NCBI GenBank assembly: GCA_963422735.1
Contig: OY730476.1
Span: 2,016,001-2,080,000 of the forward strand
Reading direction: 5' to 3'
Source of the DNA: Candidatus Latescibacterota bacterium
Lineage (GTDB): Bacteria; Latescibacterota; UBA2968; UBA8231
Length of the DNA: 64,000 nt
The translations under genes and the position numbers were made by a program. How positions within the stretch are numbered: the stretch's first letter is position 1; every line of letters starts with the position of its first letter. Shown piece by piece: positions 33,544 through 41,238 of the stretch. The notes beneath the pieces were generated by a model that saw only the letters and a program-made list of their open reading frames with translations, was not told the DNA's origin and did not search any database.

Positions 33544-36339
33544 TCACTGGCTCACCGCCATTTTGATCACGGCTTCTCCTCGCCGTCCGTCGTCGCCGTG
33601 CGCGATCAATCGGCATAGATACAGGCCGCTCGCATAGCCTTCCACCGACCAAGTAATTTCGTGCTCACCGGCTTCCAAGCCGTTGCTTCGGTGCTGCCAA
33701 ACGCGCCCGCCCAACGCACCGAACACCTCCAATTCGATGCGCCCGGCTGCGCTCAGCGCAAAGCGCAAATGCGCATCCTCGCCGGGGCCGACTGGATTGG
33801 GATAGCAATAGACCCGGTCTAGCAAGGACGCCTCGGGCTTTACAACGGGACGGCCAGCTACCAGCGCAACCCGCGACCCAGCCCCATCGGCACCGGCCTG
33901 AGGCCAATGAGCCGGCCCCCCGGCGTACCGCGCCGCCACCCTCTGCAGATCCCACGCATATATGGCCGTGCCATCCAAGGCTGCTAACGCCAAGCGGCCA
34001 TCGCTGCCTAAGTCCAATACCACCGGCGACGCCGTCGGAGGAGCGGCCATTAGCAGGGGAAAGCCCGCCAAGAGACGCCCATCGTCTTCTATACCAAAAA
34101 TTCCGCTGTGGCCAGCGACGAATATCTCCTGCTTGCCATCGGCATCCACGTCGCACAGCATCGGCTCGAAAACGAGATCGCCGACCTCGGCAAAGCGCGG
34201 CAAGGAGGTGGGAAAGTCGGCTTGGCGCAATCCGTCGGCGCGCAAGGCGTGTATCGTTCCACCCCGCGCAAGCAAAACCACCTCCAGCAGGCCATCGCCG
34301 TCCAAATCGCCCAGAACCGGCGGTGCGGCTAGCGAATCGCCTAACTCGACAGCATGAGACCCGATCTCGACTTGGCCGCTGGCTGTGGCGAAGACCCACT
34401 CGACTTGGCCGTCACCATCCAAATCGCTCGCGGCTGGGGGCAACGAGGCTGCAGCCACCGGTGGCCTTTGCTCCTTTAACTGGCCGCTTATGGCATCTAC
34501 CACGTAGAGCTGTTCCGCTCCGGCGAGCAGCAGCGCGGCCTCCGTGCCCGTGCTGAAACGCGCGTCCGATGGCACCTCGTTCAGCGCGAGCCGCCACAGC
34601 GGTTGGTCGGCCCCGGCGTCCCACGCGCTGACTTCTGCGTCGCGCCATAAAAAAATCGCGAGTCGGCCATCGCCGTCGCCGTCCCCAGCAGCCAGCAACC
34701 GTGCCCCTGGTACTCTCCACGGTGCCACACCATCTCCGGTTGCATAGCCGACCTCACCTCCGGCCTCAAAGAGCAACTCTTCTACTCCATCGCCGTCCAA
34801 GTCCGCGGCTTGTAGCCGGCCGTCGCCCGGCAAATCCCGCGGCCAGCCCGGGCGCGCACGTCCAAAGCGTATGGCCACCTGCATGGTATCGCCGGGAGCG
34901 GAAAGCACTTCGATCTCAATGCCGGTCTCCCACTCTCGGTTGCTGCGCGAGTCAGGTTGAGTCGCCGGGCCGAACAGCGTTTGTCCGCCGATAAAGAACG
35001 GGTCGTCGGGCCACCCCTCGACTTGTCGCTCCCACGCAAGAAACGGATCGCCAATGTCGCGGTACCCATCGGCCTCTTCCAAGGCAATGCTCTGCCAATG
35101 GGCCTGATTGTTCGCGGCACTGGGATCCGCAGCGCGGGCCATCACGCCTTCGTCTATGTGCCATATCAGCATCCCCGACCCTGGGACAAAGGCGTCGTAT
35201 TCCTCCATCGCCACCCACACGCCTTCCTCTATAGTGACCTGATCGCGGTCAATCCACACCACCTCTTCGTCCTCGCCCTCCACAACACCGCGCTGCCCGC
35301 GCTGCTGTCTGTTCTCCAGCAAGAAGTACTCGCGCGCGTCAATGGGTATGCGCACGGCCTTGGGGAGGTCGCCGCTGCGGTCGGTGGCTAGCAGCGATAG
35401 TACAGTGTCGCGCCGCACCACCACCGGCTCGATCCACCCTAGCTGCATCTTGCTCCACGCCATAGGATGCGGCGGTGCGAAGCCAATTCCCTCGAGGCTG
35501 TCCGTCCGCACGTAGCCCGAAGCGTTGACCCCCACGTCCATCAGACTCCAGCTGCCTAGGGCTGGCAGGCCGTCGACGAAATTGGACAACCCAGGCAGGC
35601 CCAACTGGTGGCCAAAGAACTTGGCCAGCAAGCCATTGAGGCCGACCCGGCCGTTGAGGCTAGGCGACTCTGGCAAGATCCACGCCTGATCGATCTGTGC
35701 TCCGCCCAAGGTTAGCGGGCCGCCGTTAAAGAGCGCAAAATCGCTCTCGGCTAGGAAGACCGAGCGAATGTCGTTCAGCCCGCCGGTCTCGTAGCCAACT
35801 CCGGCGTGGAACACGAGGAAGCTATTAAATTCGTCCAAGCGCGGGCCATCGGGATCGGCCAGCGCGGCAGCAAGAGCATCGCGCACCAGTTCAATCCACT
35901 TCGCGCCAATTTCCTCAGTCGTGCGTCCGTTGCCGTAGTGGAGCATGGGTTGGGGAAGCGCGTATGCCTGCCGCGAGGCGCGGGGGAACACCTCGGCGGA
36001 GATCGCCACCCGGCCGTCGGAAACGACCTCGTAATAGCGCGCCAACGCGGTCAAATGCCGCTCGAAGTAAGCGCGGTCGTGCGGCGGCACATCGTAGGGA
36101 AGCGCGTACTCCTCAGCCGCTTCCTCTGCCGAGCGCAGATCAAACGCGCCGACGCCAGTCGTCGTCAACTCATCTGGCCTTTCGCGCGGAAAATCCACGC
36201 GCAAGACCAAGATTCGCCACTCGGCATCGGCCGTAGTGGCCGCCGCCAACAGTAGTGAGAAGCAGAAGCCTAAGAGGAACAAGGGGGCCAAATCGCATCG
36301 TCGCCGCGCAGCAACAGGACCCGTGTCCGATTGGAACAT
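33544..36339 (-). CDS. Immune inhibitor A (M6)-like domain + FG-GAP repeats + T9SS type A CTD; HExxH degenerate
   Basis: ILVLRVDF, VFHAG, KFFGHQLGLP, WSLMD, KMQLGW, YFLLENR, LIWHID; DLDGDG repeats; YPNP...SGLYL CTD. Confidence 0.82.
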   Translation of the reverse strand: MFQSDTGPVAARRRCDLAPLFLLGFCFSLLLAAATTADAEWRILVLRVDFPRERPDELTTTGVGAFDLRSAEEAAEEYALPYDVPPHDRAYFERHLTALARYYEVVSDGRVAISAEVFPRASRQAYALPQPMLHYGNGRTTEEIGAKWIELVRDALAAALADPDGPRLDEFNSFLVFHAGVGYETGGLNDIRSVFLAESDFALFNGGPLTLGGAQIDQAWILPESPSLNGRVGLNGLLAKFFGHQLGLPGLSNFVDGLPALGSWSLMDVGVNASGYVRTDSLEGIGFAPPHPMAWSKMQLGWIEPVVVRRDTVLSLLATDRSGDLPKAVRIPIDAREYFLLENRQQRGQRGVVEGEDEEVVWIDRDQVTIEEGVWVAMEEYDAFVPGSGMLIWHIDEGVMARAADPSAANNQAHWQSIALEEADGYRDIGDPFLAWERQVEGWPDDPFFIGGQTLFGPATQPDSRSNREWETGIEIEVLSAPGDTMQVAIRFGRARPGWPRDLPGDGRLQAADLDGDGVEELLFEAGGEVGYATGDGVAPWRVPGARLLAAGDGDGDGRLAIFLWRDAEVSAWDAGADQPLWRLALNEVPSDARFSTGTEAALLLAGAEQLYVVDAISGQLKEQRPPVAAASLPPAASDLDGDGQVEWVFATASGQVEIGSHAVELGDSLAAPPVLGDLDGDGLLEVVLLARGGTIHALRADGLRQADFPTSLPRFAEVGDLVFEPMLCDVDADGKQEIFVAGHSGIFGIEDDGRLLAGFPLLMAAPPTASPVVLDLGSDGRLALAALDGTAIYAWDLQRVAARYAGGPAHWPQAGADGAGSRVALVAGRPVVKPEASLLDRVYCYPNPVGPGEDAHLRFALSAAGRIELEVFGALGGRVWQHRSNGLEAGEHEITWSVEGYASGLYLCRLIAHGDDGRRGEAVIKMAVSQ

Positions 36340-36341
36340 CC

Positions 36342-37394
36342 TCAGAAAATGAGATTCAGGGAAAACCGCGTATTGTCCTCCAGCGGCGTTATCTTACTGG
36401 CATCGACATACGCCACATCGAATTGGAAGCGGTTGTACTTTAGGCCGACGCCAAAATTCCGGGTCGCCAACTCGCCGTCGGTGTCCCGCGAAAGGCCCGC
36501 ACGCAACGCGATGAAAGCCTCGTCTTCGCGGGCGGAAAGCCCGTATCGGTATTCGCCGCCCACGTGCAAATCCATCTCCTTGAACTCATTGCTCGCGCTC
36601 TCGTCAGCCCACGCCTTGACCAAGTTGCTGACAAAAGATCCATCGGCGATTAGGGGCTTGTACAAGTCAAAGGAGAGCAGCACGTCGTTGTATTGGGTAT
36701 CCATCACCTCGTAGGCCACTCCGACGACGATGTGCTGGGGCAGCGAATCGGCCTGTTCGGCGTCTATGTAGGCGATCTTTGGGCCTAGGTTGCGTAGGGC
36801 CGCGCCCAAGCTGAGGCTCGGCGTGGCCTTCCACAAAAAACCCAAATCCGCGGCAAAGCTGTTGCCCACGCCCCGACCCCGCTCAATGCCGGCCCCCTGA
36901 TCGGCCAAATTGCTGCGGATGAACTTCAAGCCGATGCCAGCAGACGCATAGCTGCTAAGGTGCGCCCCGTAGGCCGCAGACATGGCCACATCGTAACTAC
37001 GGAAGGTGCCTTGGTGGTTGCCGCGCTCGTCGGTGCGGATCTGCTCGCCTAGGTTTAGCAGCGCGACGTTGAGACCGATATTGCCCCAGCCCTCCACGGG
37101 CATGGAATAGGCCAAAAACTCGTAGGATAAGTCGTCGGCCAGCCCGGGCAGCCACTTGCTGTGAGTGAAGTGGAGCTTTTTCTTACTCTGCCCGACGAGG
37201 GCAGCCGGATTGAAGTAGCTCGCCGTGGCGTCGTCGGCCACAGCCACGTACGACTCGCCCATGCCAATGGCGCGGGCACCCGGCTCGATCAGCAAAAAGA
37301 GCACGGCGGCGCGGCTCTCGGGCGTAGCCCGGATCTCATCGGGCAATGCGCCCGCGCACAGGCCGGCCAGCAGCAGGGTCGTCAGTTTCCTCAT
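36342..37394 (-). CDS. porV: Type IX secretion shuttle PorV-like beta-barrel
   Basis: FLLIEPGARAIGMGE..VAVADD, HSKWLPGLADDL, KFIRSNL, NLGPKIAY, PLEDNTRFSL; directly downstream of porU. Confidence 0.88.
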   Translation of the reverse strand: MRKLTTLLLAGLCAGALPDEIRATPESRAAVLFLLIEPGARAIGMGESYVAVADDATASYFNPAALVGQSKKKLHFTHSKWLPGLADDLSYEFLAYSMPVEGWGNIGLNVALLNLGEQIRTDERGNHQGTFRSYDVAMSAAYGAHLSSYASAGIGLKFIRSNLADQGAGIERGRGVGNSFAADLGFLWKATPSLSLGAALRNLGPKIAYIDAEQADSLPQHIVVGVAYEVMDTQYNDVLLSFDLYKPLIADGSFVSNLVKAWADESASNEFKEMDLHVGGEYRYGLSAREDEAFIALRAGLSRDTDGELATRNFGVGLKYNRFQFDVAYVDASKITPLEDNTRFSLNLIF

Positions 37395-37504
37395 AGCGGA
37401 GTCCTCCTCAGCTAAGAATAAGAATATAAGAATGATGCCTCCTAAGTACTAAGGCAATCTCACTGCTGCAAAGGCACTCCTCTCGCAACATTTACTTGGC
37501 GACC
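37354..37504. repeat. Copy 2 of duplicated leader/signal-peptide segment
   Basis: Spans porU last codons, intergenic leader and first ~13 porV codons; aligns with 33389-33525. Confidence 0.9.
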
Positions 37505-40500
37505 TGCAAGACAGCGCGGCGTGCGACCGTAGTACCGCTTTCCCGCTCGGCTTCTATTCGGTATAGATACGCGCCACTGGCCAAGCCCGTCGGCGGCATC
37601 CAAGGCACCTGGTTGTAGCCGGTGTGTGCCTGTCCGTCTAGCTGGTCTATCAGCCGACCAGCCAGCGAAAAAACCTCTATCTGCACAGTGCGCATGTCGT
37701 TTTCTAGCTCATACGTGAAGTAGCCGCTATCGCGCATGGGGTTCGGATAAAATAGGACCTTGGCAAGGCCCGCGTCGCCTTCGTCGTCTCCGACCGAGAC
37801 CGACACCGTCGCACGCGACGAATTGTTGAAGTTATCCCAAGCCTTCAGGCGGATCTCGTGTTTGCCCGCTTCCAATTCGGGCAGGGGAAATTCAATGACC
37901 CCCTGCCGGTAGTCCCCACCCTGCACACTGTACATATCCGTCAATGTGAAGAGCTCGCCGTCGATGGCCAGTTCGATTTCGTGCCCGGTCTCCCCGGTGA
38001 TGTTGATGCCGCTGGGATCCGCAATTGAGGCCAACAGCACCGTTTGCCGCGGAATCTTGGTGCCTTTGGCCCCCTCGAAGCGCAGGGAAATTTCCGGCCC
38101 TTCCACGTCCGCCTCCACGCCTTTGGCCGTGCCCGCCAGCACCAGTCCGTCCGCCTTGCCAAAAGCCTCGGGACTGTCATCGCTCCAGACGTAGGCGCTG
38201 ATGCGGCCGTTCTTCCCCCCATAGGTAATGTCTTTAGGGATCCGGAATGCGGCACTAAAGCGGCCCTCGGCTACTGGAAAGCGACCGCGAAAGATGGGGG
38301 CACCGGTCTGCTGGTAGGTAAATCCCTCCAACTCACTTTCTTCACTCGAATCAAATGCCTGCAACCACACTTGTCCCTCATAGTCGGTGGCCGGCGCATC
38401 AGCTGCGTCGAGGACCTGGCCGGCGATGGCCACTTCGCCGAGGGCACGGAGCGAATCGGCCACATCGATCTGCACCTGAAAGCGCGGCATGGCCAAGCGC
38501 GTCGCCGGGTCGCCAAAGAGCGAATAGCGCTGAATGTTGCGGAACGTTGTGGCACCGCTGGGGTCATACTGCGGCAGCAATAATTGCTTGGCCTCGGCGA
38601 GGGCCAGCCCAATCGGCACGTGCTCCCGTCCGGTGTGGTACATCTGCCGATAGAACTGGTTGGCCAACTCGACATTGCTGTCGTGATACCCTATCCGGGT
38701 CGCGCAAATCATGCCGATCACGCCCCCGTCTTCCTTCTTCAGAAGTGCCTCGGGGATGGAAATGCGCACTGGATCGTCGAACACCCCCACTTGACTCGCA
38801 GCCGTAAAAAACAAGGGCAGGCGACCGCCGTTGTCGATCTTGTCCAAATCGCGGGAAAGAAAAAACATGCGCTCGTGGGCCAGCACGTAAAAGCTGCCGT
38901 GCCCCACATAGGTCACAATGAGCGCACCCTTGTTGAAGAGCCGGATGAACTCGTCCCGAGCTCGTGGCTTCTCCAGCCCCTCTAGAGGGAATTGGGCGAT
39001 GTAGAGCTTGGTCAAGTCCGACGTCTCGGGCAAAACGTGCCGGGCCATGTATTCGCTATCCCTGATAAACATCGACTCTACCCTGCTCGGCTTATCTCGA
39101 TTGTTCAAGTCGTCCGAGGCCAGCACTATTCGGCTCTGCCAAGGCCCCAATTCGGGCGCGCGGTCGTAGGCGATGATTTTGTCGGCGAGCGCGTCGGCCT
39201 CGGCCGCGGTCTGCACTGGCAGCCGACCAATGGCCATGTCGGGAAACAAATCGTTGCCCACCACGCGCGTGTACCACTCATCGTACGTGCTGTCGCCGTC
39301 TTGAAAGGCCGGAATCCAATTGCCCTGACTGAGGGCCGAATTGTTCTTGTAGTCGTACGAGCCATCGCCGAACAACGTCACGAACATGGGCGCGGGATCC
39401 CAGTGCTCGGCCGCATAGGAGAGAAAATTGCGGATCGCCGCTGGGTCTAAAAGCCCACCGGAAAACTCGTCGTAGATGTCTTGTACGTCGATGGCCGCGG
39501 TCCGCAGGGGCGGGCCGAAGCGGTCGTCTGCAGCCCGCCATTGTGCCAAGCGCTCGGCGGCGGCGCGGAATTCGCGGTGGTAAATCGCCACCCAATCGGC
39601 CCCCCAAGCTCCGGTCGTCAAATGGCCGAGCAAGTCGAGTTCGATCCGCATCGGTCGCTTCCAAGTCGCCGGGCCGCCAACTGCGTACTGACGCGGCACA
39701 TCCCCGGGCTGATCCTGAAAAATTACAGTCCCAGTTTGCGCGTCGTACGCGAAGTCCACGATCTCGGCCAAGCCAGCAGAGACCTCAAAGACGCGCGGCT
39801 GCTCGTCGGCAAAACCAGCGAGGCGGAATTGAGTGGTGCCCGTCAGCGGATAGGTGAAGAGCAACTCGCCGCGCTCGGCGACAAAGCCTCGGCTGTATTC
39901 TACTTCGTACCAGTCGAAGCGGGCCGGATTACCGGAGTGAAAAAGCCCCAAGTAGTTCAGCCCCTCCTGCGCCCCTAGTGCCGCCCACAGCGTATCGGAT
40001 GCAACGTATCTCCGGCTATGCGGTTGCGCTGGGATTGCAAAAGTCTCCGTTCCAATGGTCTCTTCATTCCAGCGCACTGAAAAACGCGGCCGCGTCTCAG
40101 GTATCCCGATAAAACCCAAACGCACGGCCACCGGCTCGGGTACGGCCTGCCGCACCACCACCGGGAAATTGCGGGCATTGCCGCGAAAATCCTCCCAGTA
40201 CCAGGTGTAGCCGGACTTGATGCTAAAAAGCTGGATGAGAACGAACTGTTCGGCTTCCTCGTGGACCCGCACCCGATAGCTCGTGGGCTGCTGCGGGTCG
40301 GACGCGACTATGGCACCGCTCCTCTGCTCGGCTCGTCGCCCCTCGACTCCACCGCCAAAACCCAGCCAGTACGCATTCTCTCGCGTGTAGAGGTTGTGAC
40401 GATATTGAAACAAACCGCTAGCTTGGACGTAGTCCCAGCGGCTGACCGGCTCGGCCCAAAACAAGACGAAGTCGTCCGCGTCCAGACGACCATCGCCCCC

Positions 40501-41238
40501 GTCTTCTACGACCAAGCCCACTTCTGGCATGGCTTGGGGTGGATCCACCTTGCTAATGGACAAGGCTTTGCCACCTCCGTAATGCAGGCGCAAACTCGCC
40601 GGATCGATGTCGCCGAGCGATACCCCGGCGGCCTCTAAGTCGGCACCCGATATCCTGTACAGCCCCTCTTCCGAGACGAAGATCCGCAGCCAAGTCCCTC
40701 TCGGCAACGCGGCCTTGCGCGCCGGCCGCCGCTTAGGTGGCAATCGCCAGTTCCTCGCTTGCTCGGGATTGACGAGCATCCCTCGATAGAATGCTTCTCC
40801 CCAAGGGTCGGCAACGCGGGTGCCGCCACCGCCAGTCACGTGCAGATCAACGACGATGCGATCGTACAGGGTCCGCGTCCCGTCCGCTTCGACGCGCGGA
40901 GCAAACGCCACCGGAACGACGCGTTGGCGCCGCGCAAAGCCGCTCTCGCCGAGGAAGGCCGGCTCGGGTGTGGGCGCGTCGTCTTCAGCAGCGCGATCCG
41001 TTCGCGCCACGCGGGCTTCGACCAGCTCCAAGCGAACCCGTCCATCAATTGGGACGCCGATCAAGGCACCGCGCCCCTGCTCCAGTTCTTGGCCCTCGGG
41101 GAGCCAAACCAACCGCAGGCGCTGTGGCGTCTGTTCGCTGACGCGCAATTCCGCCATGGCCGCACTCCCGCAAAAAAGCGCAAGCGCCCAAAAGCAGCAT
41201 TTGAATCTCATAAATTTGGTATAGGTGGAATTGATCAT
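37492..41238 (-). CDS. porU: Type IX secretion sortase PorU-like (C25 gingipain clan) with Ser at the catalytic Cys position
   Basis: IYDEFSGG..DP.AIR.FL, LFGDGSYD.K, IGRLP, YVGHG, TAASQVGVFDDP, LFGDPA, D.SGIN, LKAWDNFNNSS, CTD YPNP; start may be 41211. Confidence 0.9.
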   Translation of the reverse strand: MINSTYTKFMRFKCCFWALALFCGSAAMAELRVSEQTPQRLRLVWLPEGQELEQGRGALIGVPIDGRVRLELVEARVARTDRAAEDDAPTPEPAFLGESGFARRQRVVPVAFAPRVEADGTRTLYDRIVVDLHVTGGGGTRVADPWGEAFYRGMLVNPEQARNWRLPPKRRPARKAALPRGTWLRIFVSEEGLYRISGADLEAAGVSLGDIDPASLRLHYGGGKALSISKVDPPQAMPEVGLVVEDGGDGRLDADDFVLFWAEPVSRWDYVQASGLFQYRHNLYTRENAYWLGFGGGVEGRRAEQRSGAIVASDPQQPTSYRVRVHEEAEQFVLIQLFSIKSGYTWYWEDFRGNARNFPVVVRQAVPEPVAVRLGFIGIPETRPRFSVRWNEETIGTETFAIPAQPHSRRYVASDTLWAALGAQEGLNYLGLFHSGNPARFDWYEVEYSRGFVAERGELLFTYPLTGTTQFRLAGFADEQPRVFEVSAGLAEIVDFAYDAQTGTVIFQDQPGDVPRQYAVGGPATWKRPMRIELDLLGHLTTGAWGADWVAIYHREFRAAAERLAQWRAADDRFGPPLRTAAIDVQDIYDEFSGGLLDPAAIRNFLSYAAEHWDPAPMFVTLFGDGSYDYKNNSALSQGNWIPAFQDGDSTYDEWYTRVVGNDLFPDMAIGRLPVQTAAEADALADKIIAYDRAPELGPWQSRIVLASDDLNNRDKPSRVESMFIRDSEYMARHVLPETSDLTKLYIAQFPLEGLEKPRARDEFIRLFNKGALIVTYVGHGSFYVLAHERMFFLSRDLDKIDNGGRLPLFFTAASQVGVFDDPVRISIPEALLKKEDGGVIGMICATRIGYHDSNVELANQFYRQMYHTGREHVPIGLALAEAKQLLLPQYDPSGATTFRNIQRYSLFGDPATRLAMPRFQVQIDVADSLRALGEVAIAGQVLDAADAPATDYEGQVWLQAFDSSEESELEGFTYQQTGAPIFRGRFPVAEGRFSAAFRIPKDITYGGKNGRISAYVWSDDSPEAFGKADGLVLAGTAKGVEADVEGPEISLRFEGAKGTKIPRQTVLLASIADPSGINITGETGHEIELAIDGELFTLTDMYSVQGGDYRQGVIEFPLPELEAGKHEIRLKAWDNFNNSSRATVSVSVGDDEGDAGLAKVLFYPNPMRDSGYFTYELENDMRTVQIEVFSLAGRLIDQLDGQAHTGYNQVPWMPPTGLASGAYLYRIEAERESGTTVARRAVLQVAK

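Follow-up and report, generated by a model that had tools for sequence, protein, structure and literature searches.

The porU gene of a Candidatus Latescibacterota bacterium encodes a type IX secretion system (T9SS) sortase in which a serine, Ser815, occupies the position of the catalytic cysteine, with the catalytic histidine, His780, retained. The gene lies in a 64,000-nucleotide stretch of contig OY730476.1 (positions 2,016,001 to 2,080,000; assembly GCA_963422735.1), referred to here as the window. We propose, with a probability of roughly 0.55, that Ser815 took over the role of the ancestral Cys nucleophile in the bacterium's sole PorU, giving a working Ser815–His780–Asp710 peptidase/sortase for the C-terminal sorting domains (CTDs) of T9SS cargo. 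The chief rival, which we regard as a substantial minority possibility, is that the Ser-type PorU is a pseudo-peptidase, inert as an enzyme and maintained for a structural or CTD-binding part in the PorU/PorV/PorZ attachment complex, the CTDs being either retained or cut by an unrelated protease. A first-pass annotation of the window had posed just this choice between a serine-nucleophile sortase and an inactive scaffold, and these are still the only two live readings.

The protein, P0001, matches the PorU profile NF033707 at 631.9 bits (cut-off 420) over model positions 2–1083 of 1095. A phmmer comparison aligns residues 557–1239 with Porphyromonas gingivalis PorU (6za2) at an E value of 1.1e-57. 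The AlphaFold2 model of residues 540–925, made from a 60-row alignment, has the gingipain fold with a pLDDT of 93.3 and a pTM of 0.93, and a Foldseek search with this C25-domain model gives TM scores of 0.73–0.75 to RgpB (4ief/1cvr; E about 1e-21). At the C-terminus, PF18962 scores 21.5 bits, under its cut-off of 27; the TIGR04183 match to the CTD is given with the other features in Table 1.

The minus-strand translation of the open reading frame (ORF) at 37492–41238 contains ALIVTYVGHGSFY and RLPLFFTAASQVGVFDDPV. In phmmer alignments to PDB chains, the Ser815 segment pairs without gaps with MPIWITATCDFANYD of P. gingivalis PorU 6za2 and with LPFIFDVACVNGDF of RgpB 1cvr. These alignments bear out the earlier claim that Ser replaces the catalytic Cys, and its coordinates proved exact: the His of YVGHG is intact at 38901–38899, and the Ser codon AGT is at 38796–38794. 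Residue numbers are those of P0001, and RgpB equivalents were counted along the printed phmmer alignment to 1cvr. In that alignment H780 falls on His211, S815 on Cys244, and D710 on Glu152, which we take to be the His-orienting acid of RgpB. DSSP assignment of the model puts His780 directly after strand 774–778 and Ser815 directly after strand 809–813, which is the clan-CD arrangement. Judged from the alignment, a Ser815–His780–Asp710 triad is formally available, as D710 aligns with RgpB Glu152.

Classification of the protein follows from these residues and from its setting. Of the Cys/His dyad that marks PorU (NF033707), His780 is kept and the Cys has become Ser815. The strand topology of MEROPS family C25 and clan CD is likewise kept, and the Cys nucleophile of that family and clan is changed. 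A replaced nucleophile in a retained fold is one mark of an MCA4-like clan CD pseudopeptidase, the other being loss of peptidase activity, and P0001 has the first. Further attributes of a PorU, its own CTD and the partners PorV, PorZ (as a PorZ-like ORF), SprA and CTD cargo, are present in the genome. The function that goes with the family is to cut the CTDs from cargo and to pass the cargo on to an LPS amine. Lacking the Cys/His pair, the protein is therefore a PorU ortholog by descent, yet no cysteine peptidase.

An error of sequencing or assembly, or decay of the gene, is a vanishingly improbable explanation of the serine, and no evidence for it was found. Three studies contributed Logan contigs, from runs X4, X6 and X7, that span 38600–39000 and agree on the Ser codon, with no difference listed at 38794–38796; the X6 contig departs from the window at 38650 and at a second, unlisted position. 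This supplies the base-call support that the first-pass annotation had asked for. The ORF is intact and matches the profile hidden Markov model (HMM) over its full length. Moreover, Ser is found in 25/25 same-genus loci, at 67–100% identity, and Ser occurs together with His in 121/121 aligned proteins, namely the query and the 120 best matches of a 5.8-billion-protein search (62–100% domain identity), a recurrence far beyond chance. Close relatives thus do not show the Cys that the annotation had named as a possible refutation.

The annotation had also asked whether another cysteine, such as that of MICATR, might occupy the site. P0001 has Cys at residues 14, 15 and 23, in the signal-peptide region, and at 845, the MICATR residue. 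C845 does belong to the strand next after that of the nucleophile. DSSP of the model, however, places it inside β-strand 842–846 and not in the loop at the strand end, and column 845 reads Ser in 19, Gly in seven, Ala in five and Cys in four of 35 Ser-type sequences; close relatives read MISATR. Because the residue is not conserved, C845 is no alternative nucleophile; with its place within the strand this led us to reject it, and a role for it or another cysteine is very improbable.

The distribution of the two forms indicates the direction of change. The window's genome, G000, is a single 4.95-Mb contig with 95% completeness, and its genus belongs to family f1 (f-numbers denote GTDB families). 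Across the phylum, 163/168 genomes have a C25 match. Among 40 sampled phylum loci, 12 have Ser, all encoded by AGY, and come from all the sampled f1 genera and from f9, the two families that the Ser forms span. Another 24 have Cys, all encoded by TGY, and comprise the PorU of f5, f6, f7, f8 and f10–f14 together with a long paralog described below. As to the remaining four, L074 and L105 read Ser by HMM-guided frame choice, and L079 and L084 stand outside the Ser/Cys counts. When 1.84 billion proteins are represented at 50% identity, the 150 best representatives include 133 His/Cys forms, 12 His/Ser forms, one Gly/Ser form (P0190) and four fragments, and the 12 His/Ser representatives are all among the 14 best matches of that 150. 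In a 200-sequence FastTree rooted with the long paralog, the node of the Ser clade has a support of 0.999. As Ser is confined to one clade and distant PorU proteins have Cys, the Ser state arose from Cys through a single base substitution (TGY to AGY); the first-pass annotation was correct that the Ser815 codon is a single change from Cys. Its suggested check of the codons, TCN included, found AGY only, in 25/25 same-genus loci (AGT in 19, AGC in six), in the 12/12 sampled across the phylum and in 5/5 f1 loci from a search with the protein P0280. Several f1 genomes outside the window's genus, G124, G130 and G147 among them, carry two to four PorU-type copies of about 1250–1450 residues. The sampled copies, five from G124 and G130, all have Ser (5/5), so the Ser-type PorU has itself been duplicated.

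What is kept around the serine bears directly on the choice between the two readings. In 149 Cys-type PorU domains, 39 positions are at least 90% conserved, and 38 of the 39 reach the same threshold in 35 Ser-type domains; only the nucleophile falls short of it. Among the 38 are G779-H780-G781, D709-D710, E789, D821, E830 and N855. Neither His780 nor Asp710 varies at all, be it in the Ser-type (35/35) or the Cys-type (149/149) sequences. By comparison P0190, a 1709-residue protein of the paralog clade with Gly for His and Ser for Cys, keeps only 24/39 and, by its sequence, is likely a true pseudo-peptidase. P0190 offers a useful contrast to the conserved Ser-type PorU. It also shows that C25 relatives can lose catalytic residues, with Ser at the Cys position too, a point on the side of the dead scaffold. 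Against an inactive scaffold stands the retention of 38/39 positions, His780 and Asp710 included, over a clade for which an initial tree of 36 tips gives a mean root-to-tip distance of 0.84 changes per site. This strict retention of everything but the thiol is one ground for holding that Ser815 is active.

A second ground is the restriction of site 815 to Ser or Cys, with the constraint tighter around Ser. In a set of 328 proteins, the 184 His/Ser forms and the Cys forms nested among them, discussed below, never have Ala, Gly or Thr at this position. In 186 Ser-type sequences, A814 is present in 185, G781 in 184, G850 in 185, Q816 in 178 and H852 in 177, and the neighborhood of the Ser is tighter than that of the nucleophile in the Cys forms. 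The +4 residue in the same set is Val in 164, Pro in 16, Ile in two, Gln in two, Trp in one and Ser in one, and never Ala. Clade-specific positions are A814 (Thr/Ser in the Cys forms), Q816, P829, G850 and H852. The loop with G850 and H852 follows the third strand, and by analogy it may be the substrate-binding loop, which we take this loop to be in caspases and gingipains. The Cys-bearing sister group P0132/P0272/P0273 reads TAACAVGQFDHP and already has A814 and H852.

The serine is not irreversible. Searches seeded with the nearest Cys forms found three proteins with Cys that are otherwise like the Ser-type PorU: P0280 (TATCQVGAFDDP), P0282 (TAACQVGAFDDP) and P0324 (TVTCQVGAFDDP). A full-length IQ-TREE (38 rows, 1246 columns) places P0280 and P0282 inside the Ser crown, within the starred sets, and an approximately unbiased (AU) test rejects the tree that keeps all Ser forms together (delta lnL 388, p = 5.8e-7; the group was defined post hoc, from the tree). 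FastTree gives the same nesting of P0280 and P0282 when the nucleophile column and its two neighbors are masked. In a 50-row IQ-TREE, P0280 is sister to the Ser-type P0315 (support 99), P0282 is in the same four-row clade, P0324 is in another major subclade, and the P0132 group is sister to the entire Ser clade (support 81). The starred branches of this tree force three separate Cys placements, and the Ser label takes four changes. By these trees, Cys has reappeared at at least three places inside the Ser clade.

The nested Cys forms also differ beside the nucleophile. All three have Ala at +4 (against 0/186 Ser forms), and two of three have Thr at −1, where 185/186 Ser forms have Ala. The pattern suggests that the nucleophile and its neighbors change together, although co-variation cannot be tested statistically on as few as three nested Cys events. 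This repeated interchange, with its coupled neighbor changes, is a third ground for an active serine; a scaffold would have to account for a position that is only ever Ser or Cys and for neighbors that change in step with it. The closest match to P0280 among 76 f1 genomes has 72% identity, with none closer. The six loci from that search, of which L111 is the same gene as L069, all have Ser.

A fourth ground is genomic. The Pfam C25 search of the 4.95-Mb contig of G000 gave one match, porU itself, and no second C25 gene. The same contig has 45 TIGR04183 CTD matches over the cut-off, 44 besides PorU's own, and a SprA translocon ORF of 2140 residues that is over its cut-off with 611 bits summed. 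In family f9 (G049 and G050) the Ser-PorU is again the sole C25 match, SprA and PorZ-like genes are present, and the 74 and 93 CTD matches, as against 10–21 in G025, G077 and G048, are the largest numbers in the genomes searched. In these searches, cargo-rich T9SS genomes of two lineages have no other C25 gene.

Elsewhere in the phylum there is a C25 paralog of about 1900 residues (range about 1600–1950) that keeps the catalytic Cys in an SCLNG or TCFT motif. Its C25 domain is 30–38% identical to P0001, and its nearest NCBIfam model is NF052324, ‘putative PorU2’, at 228–250 bits, with the cut-off of 450 not reached. In families f2–f4 it is the sole C25 match, along with SprA and 10–16 CTD matches, and it may be the sortase there. 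Most f1 genomes of other genera carry it beside the Ser-PorU, and so do 5/31 genomes of the window's genus, a distribution on which the dead scaffold can draw: since such a Cys-bearing paralog exists, catalysis could have been lost ancestrally through redundancy. Against this, it is absent from the Pfam C25 search of G000 and from the C25 matches of G049 and G050, and 26/31 genomes of the window's genus have a single C25 match; G000, G049 and G050 nevertheless keep 45–93 CTD matches and the translocon.

Several points weigh against an active serine. Cys-to-Ser changes are routine dead mutants in clan CD, and a separase C2029S entry stands among the PDB structures in the Foldseek list. No residue was found in the alignments of Ser and Cys forms that clearly arose with the Ser switch and could explain activation of the serine. 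A conserved pocket would also be expected of a non-catalytic CTD-binding subunit, and the Cys reversions are compatible with reactivation of a preserved, idle site. Excerpts of PMC3220528 state that, as of 2011, the caspase fold had no known protease with a Ser nucleophile, and describe the nearest clan precedent, Trypanosoma brucei MCA4, which retains the His, carries Ser in place of Cys and is active only once Ser219 has been converted to Cys. The second gene downstream of porU is itself an ‘inactivated’ protease homolog.

A dead enzyme has a difficulty of its own. When the P. gingivalis porU is mutated to C690A, cargo is trapped on PorV with its CTD retained, according to excerpts of PMC5562754. 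If the mechanism is conserved, a genome whose one PorU is inactive would be expected to have its shuttle blocked by cargo, to the harm of the cell. The indirect evidence leans against inactivity without deciding the matter. Taken together, a catalytic apparatus conserved throughout the lineage, a C25 gene without a second copy, the large CTD set and the toggling of the nucleophile tilt the choice towards an active serine but do not settle it.

If Ser815 is active, a mechanism can be outlined, and we infer the chemical activity of Ser815, the geometry of the triad and the fate of the acyl-enzyme. PorU is described, in excerpts of PMC10202324, as a Cys/His peptidase that acts via a thioester intermediate. 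In the Ser-type enzyme, His780, oriented by Asp710, would activate the Ser815 hydroxyl, which would attack the linker preceding the cargo CTD and form an oxy-ester acyl-enzyme instead of the thioester. Water could then resolve the acyl-enzyme and free the cargo; alternatively, an amine delivered via a PorZ-like partner would anchor it. A pure hydrolase without cargo anchoring was considered and not adopted, because the Ser-only genomes G000, G049 and G050 retain PorZ-like genes, just as the Cys-type G048 does; it is left as a sub-variant of the active-serine reading. That this would be the first natural Ser-nucleophile enzyme of clan CD, an oxy-ester sortase whose nucleophile switched several times with the −1 and +4 neighbors re-tuned, is a broader claim on which we would place even odds.

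Table 1. Features of the Ser-type porU locus and related loci.
Feature	Position	Strand	Evidence or remark
porU ortholog P0001	37492..41238	−	1248 aa from first ATG; NF033707 profile match
Peptidase C25 (gingipain-fold) domain, residues 551–915	38494..39588	−	Pfam PF01364, 266.5 bits
Type-A CTD of PorU itself, residues 1164–1234	37537..37749	−	TIGR04183, 24.3 bits (cut-off 23)
Asp710, aligned with RgpB Glu152	39109..39111	−	phmmer alignment
His780, catalytic His of YVGHG	38899..38901	−	Aligned to RgpB His211 and the AGHG motif of PorU
Nucleophile segment PLFFTAASQVGVFDDP, residues 808–823	38770..38817	−	Lineage-specific A814 (−1), Q816 (+1), V819 (+4)
Ser815 (codon AGT) at the catalytic-Cys position	38794..38796	−	phmmer alignment to PDB chains
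Cys845, sole Cys of the mature protein	38704..38706	−	Non-conserved column
G850-Y851-H852, loop after strand 842–846	38683..38691	−	Clade-specific positions G850 and H852; DSSP of model
PorV-like outer-membrane shuttle gene	36342..37394	−	Directly downstream of porU; NF033709, 237.3 bits (cut-off 90)
M6-like inactivated metalloprotease homolog, FG-GAP repeats, CTD-like tail	33544..36339	−	NF052323, 277.8 bits (cut-off 600, not reached); PF13517
PorZ-like ORF, 735 aa	L108:2595-4802 = G000:C1:2860594-2862801		Directly after priA, far from porU/porV; Reg_prop repeats, PorZ N-terminal propeller, FlgD-Ig-like tail
Cys-bearing long C25 paralog loci	L035-L039, L091-L093, L106, L107		Other Latescibacterota genomes

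The PorV-like gene scores 159 bits against NF033710 PorV, under that profile's cut-off of 250. The gene after it encodes the 931-residue M6-like protein; NF052323 is named ‘T9SS-dependent M6-like inactivated metalloprotease’. M6 peptidases carry an HExxH motif, at the place of which this homolog reads FFGHQLGLPG. If so, the gene string of the Ser-PorU would hold a second protease homolog with a changed active site. Two more ORFs of the same strand follow the M6-like gene, the first PD40/MA-peptidase-like and the second, at a greater distance, again with a CTD tail. The PorZ-like ORF matches NF052228 at 178 bits over model positions 122–757, with the cut-off of 260 not reached. PorZ-like matches are present in all four searched genomes with a PorU proper (G000, G049, G050 and the Cys-type G048); none was found in G025, which has the long paralog only.

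Some details of annotation should be noted. The database gene call for the window's PorU, P0004, has 1221 residues, compared with 1248 from the first ATG. A signal-peptide-like stretch, MRFKCCFWALALFCGSAAMA, begins at Met10 of P0001 (N-terminus at 41130–41238, minus strand), and the 1221-residue call therefore probably truncates the signal peptide. The ortholog in G018 (L013, G018:C1:210750-214460) has one TAA in the matched range, near the N-terminal end, and an open frame of 1233 residues; the TAA probably lies in the region upstream of the true start. Public annotations call the Ser-type proteins ‘sortase PorU’ or ‘C25 family cysteine peptidase’ and leave the nucleophile change unremarked. 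Sequencing runs labeled as sponge or marine metagenomes share 0.05–0.17 of the words of window positions 38400–39200, no more than a hint of habitat. RNA runs X15–X20 contain 0.05–0.10 of the sampled words.

The two readings have different consequences. An active Ser-PorU would be a natural test case for the conversion of a Cys/His site to a Ser/His site, with a bearing on protease evolution and on ligase engineering, in which swapping the nucleophile alters the ratio of hydrolysis to aminolysis. A dead one would mean that T9SS lineages with 45–93 CTD matches run without their sole known CTD peptidase, which would overturn the present view of how PorV is relieved of its cargo. Under either reading, the nested Cys revertants and the Cys sister group are natural controls. 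To our knowledge, clan CD is treated as strictly cysteine-dependent. Excerpts of PMC3220528 report no Ser/Cys interchange in the clan as of 2011, and nothing later appeared in the literature searched. In a full-text search covering the main text of articles, neither a Ser-type PorU nor a T9SS of Latescibacteria was found described.

Among known systems, the closest is P. gingivalis PorU (PG0026; 6za2), the T9SS C-terminal signal peptidase/sortase. It and the window's PorU share the C25 domain, the catalytic His, a CTD of their own and a porV neighbor, and a PorZ-like gene is likewise present in the window's genome, away from porU. They differ in host (Bacteroidota versus Latescibacterota) and at the active site, where P. 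gingivalis PorU has Cys (C690, the residue changed in the catalytic mutant C690A; PMC5562754, excerpt), and the window's PorU has Ser815 with Ala in place of Thr/Ser at −1 and a fixed Gln at +1. RgpB (1cvr/4ief; MEROPS C25, clan CD) shares the fold, with His211, Cys244 and Glu152 aligned. It is, however, only about 18% identical, has a Cys nucleophile, and is a secreted Arg-specific cysteine protease that is T9SS cargo and not a sortase. The long Latescibacterota paralog has a C25 domain and occurs in the same phylum, often in the same genomes, but it is much longer, keeps its Cys and was not found in G000.

Two further systems bracket the possible meaning of the serine. In clan PA, one fold serves either nucleophile, as in the chymotrypsin-like Ser proteases and the picornain 3C Cys proteases, the latter interchange being cited in the excerpted text of PMC3220528. 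This is an analogy for an active Ser-PorU, albeit from a different fold and clan. T. brucei MCA4 is the counterpart within clan CD, a natural Cys-to-Ser change with the His kept and a site otherwise still competent, as S219C restores activity (PMC3220528, excerpt). MCA4 coexists with active paralogs that process it, whereas the window's Ser-PorU is the sole C25 gene found in its genome. In a further contrast to MCA4, Ser-PorU of this type has become fixed throughout a large clade, within which it reverted to Cys several times. Every characterized relative of the window's PorU has a catalytic Cys, and the Ser form is a departure from all of them.

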